Virus record (IMG/VR): IMGVR_UViG_3300006467_000454
Span: 1-64,000 of that record
Reading direction: 5' to 3' (one strand)
DNA length: 64,000 bases
From: a virus
Lineage: Duplodnaviria > Caudoviricetes
Under the pieces are notes generated by a model. It was not told where the DNA came from, did no database searches, and saw only the letters and a list, made by a program, of their open reading frames with translations. Of this stretch, positions 9,818 to 31,245 are shown piece by piece; positions within the stretch are counted from its first letter, which is position 1; the number at the start of each line of letters is the position of its first letter. Position numbers and translations under genes: made by a program.

Positions 9818-11407
9818 ATGTCGAAGTATAATCGAAAAAAAGAAATTGAAAAGGTGCCAACTCTACAAGGTGGAGTAGGGGTACAAATGTCGGACGAGCA
9901 CGCATTGGTTGGGTTGCTTTCTACAGGTTTGGAAGGTAAGTTCTATGAAATGGAAAAAACTCGTGAGGATCGCTTAAAAGACCTTATTCGTAAGGTGGCA
10001 AAGAAAGATAAATATCTTGTTGCGCAAATGATCGTTTATACCCGTACTGTATTCGGGCAACGTTCAATCACTCACCGTGCTGCTGTTGAATTAGCGAAAT
10101 ACCTCCCAGGAGAAGATTGGGGTAAATGGTTTTTCTCTAAGTGGAATAAGAAAGAAAATAAAGGTGGGGTAATCTTCCGTCTTGATGATATTTTAGAAAT
10201 TGCAGCCTGTTATAAGCATTTCAATAAGGATGCGAACCTTTCTAACGCAATCAAAAAAGGATTTGCAATGGCTATTGAGTCTGCTGACCCATACGAGATA
10301 GCTAAGTACCAAGGGAAAGGTAAGGATGTATCTTTGGTGGATATTGTTAATCTTGTTCACCCAAATCCATCTTCGAAGAACGCTGAAGCATTGAAACAGC
10401 TTATTGCAGGTAATTTGAAGCAGTTTAATACTGCCGAAGATAAGAACACCAAATCCGGACAAGAAGTTGCTAAGAAAGTTAAAGCAGGTAAAATCACCAA
10501 AGAGGAAGCGAAAGTTGAATTGAAGGAGAAAAAGTCTGAAAACTGGAAGGCACTTATCGGTGAAGGTACTATCGGATATTTATCATTGTTGCGTAATATC
10601 AAGAATATTATTAACACTGATGCAAGTTTGGTAGAATCAATGTGTGAATTGCTTGTTGATAAAAGGAAGGTTAAAGAGTCTTTAGTTTTCCCTCACCAAA
10701 TTGATTTGGCTTTATGTGAATTAGAAAGCCAAGGGTTTGATCAACAAACTATCAATAGGATCCAAAGCACGTTATCAACTGCTTATGAAATTTCAGTTGA
10801 AAACGTAAAAGAACTTGGTATGGATGCCCATACTGCGGTTGTGTATGATACTTCCGGATCAATGCAAGGTAAAGAAGGTGGCTATTGGGGATTCCCTAAT
10901 GCATCTATCAACGGGAAAGAATCTAATTATTCCCCATTGAATAAAGCTTCTTTAATTGCTGCCACTTTAGCAAAAGGGCTTGGGTGTGATGTTTATCAAT
11001 TTGCAACAACTTGTGAGAAGGTAATGTATCGTGCAATGGATTCAGTATTTTCTATAAAAGATAAGTTCAGGCAAATGCAAGGGAGAGTTGGCCATGGGAC
11101 AACATTTGGCTCAATTTTTGGTAAATTGGATAAACCTTACAACAGGATATTCATTATAACCGATGGGCAAGGTAACGATTCCATATTGAAGAACTCAACA
11201 TTCCAAAGCTATAAGCGTCAATTTGGTGTGAATCCATATATCTACTATGTTAATTTATGTGGATATGATAAATTAATGTTCAAGGAAAATGAAAGATTTT
11301 TCCATATTCCAGGATATTCAGCGAGTATTTATGAGCTTGCTTCTAAGTATGAGGTGGATCCTAAAGCATTGATAAAAGAAATTAGAAAAATTAGGATAAA
11401 GTACTAG
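9818..11407 (+). CDS. Ro60/Rsr-like TROVE domain RNA-binding protein
   Basis: TROVE-like features (FYE...RL..LI; R.DDILEI.A; KKG.A....A..Y..AKY; SLVD.VNLVHP; W..LI..G..GY..LLRN; FPHQI) and a C-terminal vWA (VYDTSGSM, IITDGQ). Confidence 0.9.
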   Translation: MSKYNRKKEIEKVPTLQGGVGVQMSDEHALVGLLSTGLEGKFYEMEKTREDRLKDLIRKVAKKDKYLVAQMIVYTRTVFGQRSITHRAAVELAKYLPGEDWGKWFFSKWNKKENKGGVIFRLDDILEIAACYKHFNKDANLSNAIKKGFAMAIESADPYEIAKYQGKGKDVSLVDIVNLVHPNPSSKNAEALKQLIAGNLKQFNTAEDKNTKSGQEVAKKVKAGKITKEEAKVELKEKKSENWKALIGEGTIGYLSLLRNIKNIINTDASLVESMCELLVDKRKVKESLVFPHQIDLALCELESQGFDQQTINRIQSTLSTAYEISVENVKELGMDAHTAVVYDTSGSMQGKEGGYWGFPNASINGKESNYSPLNKASLIAATLAKGLGCDVYQFATTCEKVMYRAMDSVFSIKDKFRQMQGRVGHGTTFGSIFGKLDKPYNRIFIITDGQGNDSILKNSTFQSYKRQFGVNPYIYYVNLCGYDKLMFKENERFFHIPGYSASIYELASKYEVDPKALIKEIRKIRIKY

Positions 11408-11440
11408 GTTTTTAAATAATATTTATTACCTTTACTGTAT

Positions 11441-11603
11441 GATTAGGTACTGAGGAATGCGGTTACTTCGTTTTATCTAGGTTCGAGTCCTAGTCTCCCC
11501 GCAAAAAGTTCAAGTAAAATTGGGGAGATGGTGAAATTGGTAGACACGCAAAAATTAGGGTTTTGTATTACAACAATAACACCGCTTCCAACTTCGTCCT
11601 ATC
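11441..11603 (+). ncRNA. Y-RNA-like RNA 1 containing a circularly permuted tRNA-Leu(TAG)-like module
   Basis: Closing stem GGAATGCGGT/ACCGCTTCC with GGTTACTTCG. Inside, in order: T arm, 3' acceptor strand, loop, 5' acceptor strand, D arm, anticodon arm. Begins about 34 nt after the Ro60 stop. Confidence 0.8.
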
Positions 11604-11680
11604 TTTGTTCTAAGATAGTTTTCATTTCTATAAGTTAATAATTATATTTGGAGGATCTCGGGGGCGGGAGACTCCTACTT

Positions 11681-11753
11681 GGTCCGTTCGACAAGCGGTT
11701 TAAGTCACCAGACTTTCGATCTGGAGTCATGGGTTCGAATCCCATACGGACTA
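11681..11753 (+). tRNA. tRNA-Glu(TTC)
   Basis: GGTCCGT/ACGGACT acceptor; CCAGA-CTTTCGA-TCTGG anticodon arm. Confidence 0.9.
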
Positions 11754-11755
11754 CT

Positions 11756-11872
11756 AAAAGGATGGTAAGGAAACAGGCTTACTTCGTAGCTCAAGTGGTA
11801 GAGCAATTTACTGTTAATAAATGTGTTAGGGTTCAAGTCCCTCTGTAGCCTATCCAATTTCCCTCCTTTTTT
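11756..11872 (+). ncRNA. Y-RNA-like RNA 2 containing D, anticodon (GTT) and T arms without an acceptor stem
   Basis: AAAAGGA..GG/CCCTCCTTTT and AGGCT/AGCCT stems; GGCTTACTTCG motif; ATTTA-CTGTTAA-TAAAT anticodon arm. Confidence 0.72.
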
Positions 11873-11944
11873 GAAAAGAAGCTTTTTGTTTTTTGATTAT
11901 ATTTTGGTTCATTCATCGGGGAGATAAAGTTCTCCTCGGTTTTT

Positions 11945-12021
11945 AGTCTCAGGGGCTGCTGGGTGTGGCCACCTCCCTGTCACGGAGGAAGATCAGATGG
12001 GTTCGAATCCCATTGGGACTG
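11945..12021 (+). tRNA. tRNA-Asp(GTC)
   Basis: AGTCTCA/TGGGACT acceptor; CCTCC-CTGTCAC-GGAGG anticodon arm. Confidence 0.88.
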
Positions 12022-12023
12022 CT

Positions 12024-12154
12024 AGGGGTAGTAACAGGAAAGGGTTACTTCGTATAATTAGCTCAATTGGTCGAGCATTTGTTTTAGGCACAAAGGGTTG
12101 CGGGTTCGATCCCCGTGTTATAAATAAAGATCACCCTCCTATTTTCCTCCCCTT
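12024..12154 (+). ncRNA. Y-RNA-like RNA 3 enclosing an in-order tRNA-like cloverleaf (anticodon TAG, short variable loop)
   Basis: AGGGG/CCCCT and AGGA.AGGGT/ACCCTCCT stems; GGGTTACTTCG motif; TTTGT-TTTAGGC-ACAAA anticodon arm; GCGGG-TTCGATC-CCCGT T arm. Confidence 0.72.
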
Positions 12155-12157
12155 TAT

Positions 12158-12230
12158 ATGGATGTGGCGTAGTTGGTAGCGCACCTGCTTTGGGAGCAGG
12201 GGGTCGTAGGTTCGAGTCCTACTATCCATA
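12158..12230 (+). tRNA. tRNA-Pro(TGG)
   Basis: ATGGATG/TATCCAT acceptor; CCTGC-TTTGGGA-GCAGG anticodon arm. Confidence 0.9.
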
Positions 12231-12236
12231 CAAATA

Positions 12237-12472
12237 AGTCCAATGGCAGAATTGGACAATTGCGCCTATCGGGTAGCAGTTGGGGTTGAGCCCATTGTTA
12301 GGGGTAGGTGGTAACAGGCGTAACATGGATGTGATGAAGCTTTGGGGTCGCTCCCTGATTCATTCGGAATTGAAAACCAGATTCATTGAAGTGGAAAGTA
12401 CTGTAATTAGGAAGCAGGGAGTACGTATTACCTGTGGAATATCCGTTGGGGGTTCGAGTCCCCCTTGGGCTT
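12237..12472 (+). ncRNA. about 235-nt tRNA-framed structured RNA of unknown family
   Basis: Acceptor AGTCCAA/TTGGGCT, D arm and perfect T arm, with about 180 nt of paired insert in place of the anticodon and variable arms. Confidence 0.7.
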
Positions 12473-12480
12473 ATTTACTT

Positions 12481-12555
12481 AGTCGTATGGTATAGCTGGT
12501 TTAATACACAAGAATTTGGCTCTTGAGATCCTAGGTTCGAATCCTAGTACGACTT
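12481..12555 (+). tRNA. tRNA-Gln(TTG)
   Basis: AGTCGTA/TACGACT acceptor; CAAGA-ATTTGGC-TCTTG anticodon arm. Confidence 0.88.
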
Positions 12556-12565
12556 CTAAATTTAT

Positions 12566-12680
12566 AGAGATATGGCAGCCTAAATACTAGTCGGGGTGGG
12601 TCAGGGTGCAACTTCATGATAGTAAGAGCTCTGGTGGTGTTTCTTGATTGATGCTGGGGGTTCGAGTCCCTCTTTCTCTA
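12566..12680 (+). ncRNA. tRNA-like RNA: acceptor stem + T arm + one long hairpin
   Basis: AGAGATA/TTTCTCT acceptor; GGGGG-TTCGAGT-CCCTC T arm; TAGTCGGGG/TTCTTGATTG and CAGGGT/GCTCTG stems; no D stem. Confidence 0.6.
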
Positions 12681-12682
12681 CT

Positions 12683-12756
12683 GTGTTGTTAGCTTATGTG
12701 GTAAAAGCGTCAGATTGTGGTTCTGAAGATTAGGGTTCGAGTCCCTGCAGCACCCA
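12683..12756 (+). tRNA. tRNA-His(GTG)
   Basis: GTGTTGT/GCAGCAC acceptor; TCAGA-TTGTGGT-TCTGA anticodon arm. Confidence 0.85.
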
Positions 12757-12773
12757 GTTTAAAATATATTTTT

Positions 12774-12847
12774 GGGTAGGTAGCTCAGATGGCTAGAGCA
12801 GTTGACTGTTAATCATCAGGTCGGGAGTTCGAATCTCCCCCTTCCCT
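12774..12847 (+). tRNA. tRNA-Asn(GTT)
   Basis: GGGTAGG/CCTTCCC acceptor; GTTGA-CTGTTAA-TCATC anticodon arm. Confidence 0.85.
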
Positions 12848-12909
12848 CAGTTAAAATTAGGGTGACTATGTTTTAGCCACCCTATACATGTTTAACCAAA
12901 TTAAAATGT

Positions 12910-14061
12910 ATGAAAACTTATGCAAAGATTATTTTGTTTATTGCAGCGTATTTTGTGTTTCTATTAAATCCAATGGATCTATTTGCCCCTCCTTCTAATT
13001 ATATTATCAGGGCGAATGGGGAATTCCTTTGGGAGAAAATGAAAATTGACAAATTAGAAAAAGAAAACGAGAAAGCAATTCATGCTTTAGGGATGTACGA
13101 ATCCCGAATGAACGCCAAAGCATATAATAGCATCGGGGCTATGGGCTGTTGGCAATTTATGCCGAATACAATTAAATATTTTGGATATAAAGGCATAACT
13201 CTCCAAAAATTCAAAAGGGATCCTGAAATCTTCCCTAAATCCCTCCAAGAGAAATTAATCAATTTAAAAATAAATGATGATATAAAACAACTGAAGAATC
13301 AATGGTGGAGACCTGATTCTAGAGATGTTGATTATATCGAAAAATATGTAGGAAAAGAATTCAAAGGTGTGAAAGTCACCCTATTTGGGATATTGGCTGC
13401 ATGCCATATTTCCGGATACGGTAACGTTGTCAAATTGTTTGATAACGGGTATAACCCAAAAGATATCAATGGACAAAGCCCTTTAAAGTATTTGAAGCGG
13501 TTTTCCAAGTATAAATTTACTGATCCAAAGGTTATAAACGCATCACTTGAAAAATTGGAATATGAAAGATCTATGAAATTAGCCAAACTTTTTGTTTTGC
13601 CAAAAAAAAATGATAATTTTATAGAAAATTGGTATTATTTGAAATTTCAAACAATGATTAGACAAGCCAAAAAGGATTTTGATATCCTAGTAGAAAAGAA
13701 TAATTTGGAAGTTTACACAAAAGAAGAAGCTGCCGAATTGTTGACGAAAAAATTCAAGGCGTTCCAAGACCTTGAGAAAAGTGAGGATGCTAAATCAGTT
13801 GATGCATTAAATGAATTCCGTGCGGAAGCATCTTGTTTCACGCATGTGCAAGTTATTTCTGAAAGGGATGACGCATTTGATAAATCTTTAGATTACAAGA
13901 ATGTTTACGTTCGCCCTCAAGTTTTTGTTAAAAAAGAAGAAGAAATAATCGAAAAATCAGAAAATGGGGAGGAAACCCCTAAAACTGTTGAGGTTGGGGT
14001 CTACACAGAATGCCCATTGAATGAAGCTTTGGGGAGAGTTGGACAAAAATTTGATCTGTAA
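12910..14061 (+). CDS. lysozyme-like/lytic transglycosylase domain in frame with a putative virion protein (likely internal start at 13654)
   Basis: Signal/TM N-terminus; ESRMNAKAYNSIGAMGCWQFM motif. The C-terminal 135 aa are acidic and rich in EKS motifs. Confidence 0.65.
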   Translation: MKTYAKIILFIAAYFVFLLNPMDLFAPPSNYIIRANGEFLWEKMKIDKLEKENEKAIHALGMYESRMNAKAYNSIGAMGCWQFMPNTIKYFGYKGITLQKFKRDPEIFPKSLQEKLINLKINDDIKQLKNQWWRPDSRDVDYIEKYVGKEFKGVKVTLFGILAACHISGYGNVVKLFDNGYNPKDINGQSPLKYLKRFSKYKFTDPKVINASLEKLEYERSMKLAKLFVLPKKNDNFIENWYYLKFQTMIRQAKKDFDILVEKNNLEVYTKEEAAELLTKKFKAFQDLEKSEDAKSVDALNEFRAEASCFTHVQVISERDDAFDKSLDYKNVYVRPQVFVKKEEEIIEKSENGEETPKTVEVGVYTECPLNEALGRVGQKFDL

Positions 14062-30468: not shown

Positions 30469-31245
30469 ATGCCAGATAGAAAGAATATTGTACAGAATGC
30501 GTCTCCGAGCTTAATACATAAGCCAAATGTCCAGTTCATAAAAAGTGATTTTGATGCTTTTATCGAACAACATGGATATGATGTGATTTGGGAAAAATCA
30601 GTTCGGTGTCCTTGTAAAACAAAAACAGGGAGCCATCGTGCAGGATGCCAAAATTGCTTGGGGTACGGGTGGTTGTACATAAACGCTGTCCAGACTAAAA
30701 TGTTGATTCAGAATATGAATACTGAAACGAAATATAAGTCTTGGTCAGAGGAAAAAATGGGGATGTGTAGTATTTCCGCTTTCAGTGAAAATCAGCTGTC
30801 AATTTATGACCGAATTACCTTAATGAATGATACTTCAATATTATCAGAATTGAGGGATATTAGGGAATCTTCTGGGGGAATTTTATTTGTTTTCCCTAGT
30901 TATCGCCCTGTATCAATCTTTGAGATATATCGTTTTGTGGATGTTAACCAACAACTTGTTAGGATTCCAGAAGCTGAATACACTTTATCTAATTTTACTA
31001 TTAGATTTACTGCTAATTCGGGGGTAACAAAAGGGAGTATTGTATCAATTAGGTACAGGTACCAAACCCAATACCATATAACAGATATCCCTAAAGAAGT
31101 CAGGGGTGGTAATATGGTGAACACAAAAGGTCAAACCGAAAGGGAGAAATACCCTGTACATGCTACTGCGACTAGAGCCCATGAGTCTTTAGATTACCCT
31201 GATTTTTCGGAGGTGAATGTTTTTGATAATAGTTACATAGAATGA
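30469..31245 (+). CDS. head closure/neck protein
   Basis: FI..HG..V.WEKS..CPC...C.NC.G.GW.Y; synteny. Confidence 0.7.
   Translation: MPDRKNIVQNASPSLIHKPNVQFIKSDFDAFIEQHGYDVIWEKSVRCPCKTKTGSHRAGCQNCLGYGWLYINAVQTKMLIQNMNTETKYKSWSEEKMGMCSISAFSENQLSIYDRITLMNDTSILSELRDIRESSGGILFVFPSYRPVSIFEIYRFVDVNQQLVRIPEAEYTLSNFTIRFTANSGVTKGSIVSIRYRYQTQYHITDIPKEVRGGNMVNTKGQTEREKYPVHATATRAHESLDYPDFSEVNVFDNSYIE

Follow-up and report, generated by a model that had tools for sequence, protein, structure and literature searches.

Positions 12237-12472 of the window, by which we mean the whole 64,000-nt stretch of viral DNA analysed here, are a real tRNA-framed RNA gene that lacks an anticodon. We consider it reasonably likely that this gene specifies a non-decoding small RNA built on the design of RNA1 of phage T5. 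The acceptor, D and T arms of a tRNA are intact in the 236-nt element, and about 185 nt of other RNA replace the decoding arm. The element is probably functional. It adds one member to a design that is annotated in T5 and abundant among uncultured phages, with essentially no description in the literature.

The window covers the initial 64 kb of an IMG/VR virus record of 108,320 bp that has direct terminal repeats. The tRNA-type genes all fall at 9.1-12.85 kb on the + strand, where a permuted (two-piece) tmRNA, a tRNA-Ser gene and a Ro60/TROVE gene are followed by a 1.4-kb run of RNA genes (Table 1), in which tRNA-Glu and tRNA-Asp interleave with three Y-RNA-like units. The element occupies exactly one slot of this array. 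Its flanks, AAATA (5 nt) and ATTTACTT (8 nt), consist of A+T only, and the other array spacers are likewise pure A+T or nearly so. An ORF at 12280-12495 (71 aa, TTG start) overlaps the T arm of the element and tRNA-Gln. Between Y-like unit 2 and tRNA-Asp there is a terminator-like hairpin with a T run (11915-11940), which suggests that the RNA cluster may not be a single transcription unit. A second odd tRNA-like RNA of 114 nt (12567-12680) lies between tRNA-Gln and tRNA-His, 95 nt past the element. Its T arm is nearly that of the element (GGGGGTTCGAGTCCCTC), one position of its acceptor stem is mismatched, its D region is unpaired and it forms a single long hairpin; it is called by none of Aragorn, Rfam and our frame model R1 (see below).

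Table 1. Parts of the element and neighbouring genes in the window
Feature	Position	Strand	Evidence or remark
Acceptor 5' strand AGTCCAA	12237-12243	+	7/7 pairs with 12465-12471, two of them G-U; aligns to the acceptor columns of R1
U8 G9 and class-II type D arm, GCA / GAATTGGACAAT / TGC	12244-12263	+	Sequence; R1 alignment
Long irregular hairpin at the anticodon-arm position, apical loop GUUGAG	12264-12309	+	Constrained and free folds concur; G+C 56%
138-nt domain at the variable-arm position	12310-12447	+	Folds; no homologs found
T arm GGGGG-UUCGAGU-CCCCC	12448-12464	+	Sequence; R1 alignment
Acceptor 3' strand TTGGGCT (12465-12471) and discriminator U; CCA not encoded	12465-12472	+	Sequence
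tRNA-Pro(UGG)	12158-12231	+	Ends 5 nt upstream of the element
tRNA-Gln(UUG)	12481-12556	+	Starts 8 nt downstream of the element
Ro60/TROVE gene, 529 aa	9818-11407	+	Pfam PF05731, E 1.4e-9; phrog_850; ends 830 nt upstream of the element
Three Y-RNA-like units with module GTRGTRA..TACTTCG	11441-12154 (~11441-11603, 11756-11872, 12024-12154)	+	HMM

The acceptor, D-arm, T-arm and hairpin stems that an earlier note had read from this DNA were each recovered at the same positions. All of the nucleotides that build the tRNA elbow are present, namely U8, A14, G18G19, the G53-C61 pair and the U54-U55-C56-R57-A58 T loop, and of the features typical of RF00005 the element has the 7-bp acceptor stem, the D arm with G18G19 and the UUCRA T loop. 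The D arm itself (12246-12263) carries A14 and G18G19 and reads, as RNA, UG-GCA-GAAUUGGACAAU-UGC, the class-II type of phage tRNA-Leu and tRNA-Ser genes; its TGGC.GAATTGG motif is common to the D arms of these phage tRNAs and to the AGTCAGG family described below. The 46-nt hairpin at the anticodon position is formed by (G)CCTATC/GGTAGG(T) and an inner hairpin, TAGCAGT..GGG/CCC..ATTGTTA, with a 6-nt loop. The variable position, previously put at about 135 nt with ACAGG/CCTGT and a second stem, measures 138 nt and holds both ACAGG/CCTGT and GCTCCCTG/CAGGGAGT. In predicted folds this domain contains the 8-bp stem GCUCCCUG/CAGGGAGU, and ACAGG/CCTGT and the 8-bp AUGGAUGU/AUAUCCGU helix are mutually exclusive in a nested fold. 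The domain opens with GUGGUAA-CAGG, which resembles the start of Y-like unit 3.

The tRNA frame of the element is thus well supported, and the large structured cargo proposed for it is no more than plausible. Thermodynamics lends no support to the word 'structured', as the element in full has a fold z-score against shuffled sequences of -1.2 and the insert alone one of -0.57. In the unconstrained minimum free energy (MFE) structure (-75.4 kcal/mol), GUCCAAU pairs with the D-loop segment AUUGGAC and the acceptor stem does not form; the fold constrained to the tRNA shape reaches -69.6 kcal/mol and is 5.8 kcal/mol worse. In composition, by contrast, the insert is gene-like: its G+C content of 46.7% falls in the 99th percentile of 184-nt windows, where the genome stands at 36.4% and the array spacers at 0-15%.

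The element was called neither by Aragorn in its default mode nor by the Rfam tRNA model RF00005. A 5-bp anticodon stem with a 7-nt loop (U33, anticodon, R37) was not found in it; instead, in agreement with the claim that there is no canonical anticodon loop, the D arm runs straight into the 46-nt hairpin with its 6-nt loop. Because the 7-nt anticodon loop is missing, the element is not a decoding tRNA. A search of positions 11400-13400 with all Rfam families, at the gathering threshold and at E<=10, matched just T-arm fragments inside the element, so that it corresponds to no known family and to no intron-containing tRNA in that database. No intron or ribozyme family, including RF00028, was hit at E<=10, which bears out the earlier statement that a group I/II intron core is absent. 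The same holds for the missing tmRNA tag: the tag frame and the G3-U70 pair are both absent, and a tmRNA-like identity of the element was rejected on these two grounds.

RNAs of the same architecture are widespread in phage sequences. A structural scan of the Ro60 loci yielded elements of 123-124 nt starting AGTCAGG-TG-GCG.AATTGG, and the 14-base pattern AGTCNNNTGGCNNAATTGG was found at no fewer than 118 loci (at least) in IMG/VR. Among the matches listed there are 88 distinct tRNA-frame sequences of 69-246 nt in which the T arm and the acceptor 3' strand match as well. A canonical anticodon arm is lacking in 84 of these 88 and present in four, so the proposed design of a tRNA frame with a foreign insert does recur in phages. 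In most of them the frame is near-invariant, AGTCAGG-TG-GCGGAATTGGTAGACGC ... ACAGGTTCGAATCCTGT-CCTGACT-A, and of class II (Leu-type). Again among the matches listed, the sequence between the two halves of the frame is unrelated from contig to contig, 58 inserts share no motif and give no significant match to the Y-module HMM, and inserts fold slightly better than shuffled sequences (mean z -0.74). About half of the listed loci have tRNA genes within 1.5 kb, and no neighbouring protein is common to them (the largest cluster covers 5 of 58 loci). One subfamily of six members preserves a stem at the anticodon position through three compensatory pairs. The 3' half of the frame occurs in 14 of 185,579 species genomes, all 14 being MAG contigs, several of them labelled Bacteroidota, which indicates that the frame is not a host tRNA. 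The Rfam tRNA model matches some members with large insertions; there is no Rfam family dedicated to the frame, and a literature search for its sequences found no paper. Several contigs carry more than one such RNA (L087, with 5 copies, and L084, L143, L111, L115, L137, L150 and L176), with identical acceptor and T arms and differing D arms and inserts. Many copies come immediately after the stop codon that ends a small ORF, in the manner of punctuation marks between genes.

To describe the frame alone, a covariance model (R1) was built from an alignment (A2) of 54 unrelated phage tRNA-frame RNAs. R1 aligns to the element from end to end (12237-12472) with 29.5 bits, the best score in the 64-kb window, and an E-value of 2.4e-5, such E-values being rough by the tool's own account. 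The true tRNA-Gln scores 27.6 bits, which means that R1 recognises a class-II-like tRNA frame generally and not the AGTCAGG family specifically. The near-invariant AGTCAGG...ACAGGTTCGAATCCTGTCCTGACT-A is not found in the element, which shares with the family just AGTC, UG and GC.GAATTGG. We therefore class the element as a diverged or parallel member of the AGTCAGG / T5 RNA1 design.

Homologs of the element itself were sought in several collections. No homolog was recovered by nhmmer and blastn from 66 Ro60 loci, or by three exact or degenerate patterns from IMG/VR, the last of which matched just coding sequence or tRNA-Ser D arms. A gapped pattern applied to metagenome contigs hit three chance pairs of neighbouring tRNAs and no homolog, and the collection of cultured phages returned tRNA pieces only. 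The phage's own 108-kb genome contains neither a paralog of the element nor an antisense target above chance. The arrays that accompany the best homologs of the phage Ro60 protein (57% identical) are without the element, and an exact look-up of this protein found no entry. The collection of homologs that had been proposed therefore succeeded for the frame, for which relatives were found, and failed for the insert, which has a homolog in no collection searched. The possibility raised earlier that the insert is unconserved random sequence agrees with this result and with its shuffle-like folding; its G+C content, the intact frame and the position in the array argue against it indirectly.

Since a Ro60 gene and Y-RNA-like units share the array with the element, the RNAs of Ro60 loci were compared. 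Metagenome contigs of phage size commonly carry Ro60 homologs at 50-57% identity, and the 66 loci mentioned above were gathered for this comparison. The Ro60 strand at these loci repeats a module, GT[AG]GT[AGT]A - ~10 nt - TAC[T/A]TCG (also TTCATCG). The heptamer TACTTCG occurs 178 times on the + strand against 39 times on the - strand; of the distinct first boxes, 73 are followed at the proper distance by an exact second box and 11 by one with a single mismatch, compared with no correctly spaced second box in the minus-strand controls. The module is predicted to fold as a two-helix stem with an internal loop, and the sequence that it encloses is a short loop, a tRNA-like body in permuted order or an entire tRNA. 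Rfam YrlA matches one Y-like unit weakly but at full length (30 bits). An HMM of 102 modules recovers the three units of the window at ~11441, 11756 and 12024 and finds nothing inside the element even at E<100; Rfam YrlA (RF02553) has no match in the element either. The layout of YrlA and its link to Ro60 were described by Chen et al. 2014 (PMC4201824). The module of the Ro60 phages differs from the published YrlA motif GNCGAA, is nearly invisible to RF02553 and was seen in at least four topologies (window 11441-12154; L002-L067). Its second box falls at the position of the acceptor 5' strand of the enclosed tRNA-like body and is followed by TA and the D arm. In the window, Y-like unit 1 retains a complete anticodon arm showing UAG (Leu) at 11526-11600, with the Y stem at the variable-arm position, and its orthologs in L003 and L005 carry other loop sequences.

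One segment of the element does recall the Y-like units. Positions 12296-12318 (TGTTAGGGGTAGGTGGTAACAGG) match the opening 19 nt of unit 3 (12020-12038) except for one mismatch and an insertion of 4 nt, so that the element has the first box, GTGGTAA (12308-12314), and is without the second box, TAC[T/A]TCG. A Y RNA in the strict sense was rejected as an identity for the element, the Ro-binding module being missing and the tRNA order not permuted.

Three explanations other than a functional RNA of the T5 RNA1 design need to be weighed. The element could be an intron-containing tRNA gene that is spliced to a working tRNA, and Aragorn in its intron mode does offer a tRNA-Thr(GGU) with a 144-nt intron. 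A genuine intron of this kind is present in a related Ro60 phage: on a Ro60-encoding viral contig (L030 / L031, 6459-6741) a tRNA-Leu(UAA) gene has a 195-nt group I intron in its anticodon loop. This intron, taken from L030, served as a positive control and scores 75 bits on RF00028, against the empty result for the element. The Aragorn model requires a mismatch in the anticodon stem, G33 in place of U33, a long extra arm and insertion at a non-canonical point, and was rejected as weak; no pairing of the exon ends into a 5-bp stem and a 7-nt loop is possible. The insert, at 144-185 nt, is also shorter than the control intron and than any known self-splicing group I intron of a tRNA. An intron is thus highly improbable. 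An RNA linked to Ro60 deserves more consideration, either as a fourth, normal-topology member of the Y set that docks on the phage Ro60 through a degenerate Y box, or as a client of the Ro60/Y-RNA particle. The Ro60 gene lies upstream on the same strand with the three Y-like units in between, the segment at 12296-12318 echoes the start of unit 3, and in other Ro60 phages tRNA frames of normal topology enclose a full Y module (L006 3297-3418, L017 624-752 and L002 6947-7072). Against this stand the silence of the 102-module HMM and of Rfam YrlA and the lack of the second box. In addition, among the matches listed, a TROVE protein is encoded in just 3 of 50 viral records with tRNA-frame RNAs and in 0 of the 6 that are at least 90% complete, so that the tRNA-frame class as a whole does not depend on Ro60. 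We regard a Ro60 connection of the element as possible but unsupported, and a Ro60-linked RNA as an improbable account of it. A more specific form, in which the element would be a full-topology tRNA mimic within the phage Ro60 RNP, with its half Y box (GUGGUAA-CAGG) docking on Ro60, and would be the counterpart of YrlA without the permutation, a surviving step between tRNA genes and Y RNAs, seems to us slightly less probable still.

The element might instead be a non-functional by-product of recombination in the array, that is, a class-II tRNA gene whose middle was swapped for duplicated or foreign sequence and which is tolerated as the frame permits clean processing of the polycistronic tRNA transcript. 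This would fit the orphan insert with its ordinary fold stability, the partial origin of that insert as a local duplicate of an array junction, and the U73 found where the family has A73. It would not lead one to expect that the universally conserved nucleotides of the frame are all intact, or that the G+C content of the insert is so high beside nearly pure A+T spacers. Nor would it account for a two-arm design that is maintained in T5 RNA1 and many phages, with covariation in one subfamily, or for the second odd tRNA-like RNA with the same T arm 95 nt downstream. We consider such a by-product unlikely. The functional, T5 RNA1-like reading that we prefer draws on the intact elbow, the array slot, the R1 score, the match to T5 RNA1, the recurrence of the design in IMG/VR, the compensatory changes in one subfamily, the G+C content of the insert and the example of T4 RNAC and RNAD, which are real RNAs from a tRNA cluster. 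It has to be set against an insert that lacks a homolog and has a z-score of -0.57, an MFE that favours the alternative hairpin at the 5' end by 5.8 kcal/mol, acceptor and T stems that depart from the family consensus, the discriminator U73 in place of A73, and an R1 model that also scores tRNA-Gln. The proposal of the earlier note that this is a natural tRNA-scaffold RNA therefore holds in part: the tRNA frame, the missing anticodon loop, the recurrence of the design and the precedent of T5 RNA1 speak for it, and the insert, which folds like shuffled sequence and has no homolog, does not.

From the anatomy of the gene and its place in the array we infer how a T5 RNA1-like RNA of this kind would be expressed, processed and stabilised, and what its insert might do. 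The element would be co-transcribed with the neighbouring tRNAs. The helix of acceptor and T arm, with the elbow formed by the D and T loops, would make the transcript a substrate of RNase P, cut at 12236/12237, and the 3' end would be produced by RNase Z or exonucleases, followed by addition of CCA. The expected product is a stable, compact, L-shaped RNA of ~236 nt, in which the two long arms that stand in place of the anticodon and variable arms would be the working part. As these arms replace the decoding end, the RNA could not read codons or act on the ribosome as a tRNA does; their most likely job would be to bind a protein or an RNA, as a decoy or an adaptor. By the rule known from E. 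coli, the element, with its U73, is probably not charged by LeuRS.

Stable RNAs of unknown function have long been known from phage tRNA clusters, such as RNAC and RNAD of T4 and RNA1 of T5. The element and the frames retrieved here suggest that these RNAs are not oddities, and they may exemplify a widespread phage design in which a constant, host-processed tRNA body carries interchangeable RNA inserts. If the inserts are active, this would be a general route by which phages obtain stable small RNAs, and such RNAs could act as decoys that divert defence or processing proteins binding tRNA, or could serve as adaptors or regulators. At present tRNA-frame RNAs are captured by no RNA database or genome annotation. 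For the element, the RNA-centred module in which it resides (Ro60, three Y-like RNAs and a two-piece tmRNA) supplies a concrete candidate for a protein partner.

Several known systems resemble the element to varying degrees. A tRNA with a group I intron, e.g., tRNA-Leu(UAA), likewise presents two tRNA halves that lie 150-250 nt apart; the element differs from it in having neither an intron core nor an anticodon arm that can be reconstructed, and in that its insert covers the anticodon and variable positions together. In the engineered tRNA scaffold of Ponchon and Dardel, a foreign RNA placed in the anticodon arm is reportedly processed and protected by the tRNA machinery of the cell. That scaffold is a laboratory construct, and its resemblance to the element is one of design, not of family. 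YrlA RNAs (RF02553) share with the element a tRNA-like D arm, T arm and acceptor-like helix, are non-decoding, and are also encoded less than 4 kb from a Ro60 gene on the same strand. Their parts are permuted, with the order V, T arm, loop-closed acceptor hairpin and D arm, and the RNA ends in the Ro-binding stem (PMC4201824; RF02553 alignment), whereas the element has the normal tRNA order and open acceptor ends. YrlA also bears the Ro60-binding motif (GNCGAA, or GTRGTRA-N10-TACWTCG in the phage group), of which the element lacks the full module.

Members of the AGTCAGG family share with the element a class-II frame starting AGTC..TGGC.GAATTGG; they have inserts of any sequence and length, often lie in tRNA arrays and in some cases adjoin Ro60 genes. 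The near-invariant parts of their frame, AGTCAGG / ACAGGTTCGAATCCTGT / CCTGACT-A, correspond in the element to AGTCCAA / GGGGG..CCCCC / TTGGGCT-U, and at 236 nt the element is near the top of the length range among the matches listed. In phage T4, RNAC (species 1, 139 nt) and RNAD (species 2, 119 nt) are, like the element, encoded among phage tRNA genes; they are expressed RNAs of the tRNA cluster whose role is unknown (PMC3014915) and have been detected by Northern blot (PMC9697503). Of the frame, RNAC retains just the T arm together with an acceptor stem that pairs imperfectly (a partial R1 match of 19.7 bits), and RNAD has no tRNA frame. The same design is seen in RNA1 of T5, which lies in the tRNA cluster at 30501-30644 of record AY543070 and is annotated there as a 'tRNA-like stable RNA with unknown functions'; its stability is taken from this annotation, and a literature search found no paper on it. 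The host of T5 is E. coli, the 2-kb stretch of T5 examined contains no Ro60 gene, and the insert of RNA1 is unrelated to that of the element and shorter (~85 nt compared with ~185 nt). RNA1 nevertheless scores 39.4 bits with R1 and has, like the element, an acceptor stem (6/7 pairs in RNA1), UG at positions 8-9, a class-II D arm (CCGGAATTGGTAGACGG in RNA1) and a T arm; between its D and T arms it likewise has no anticodon loop but a long arm followed by another hairpin.
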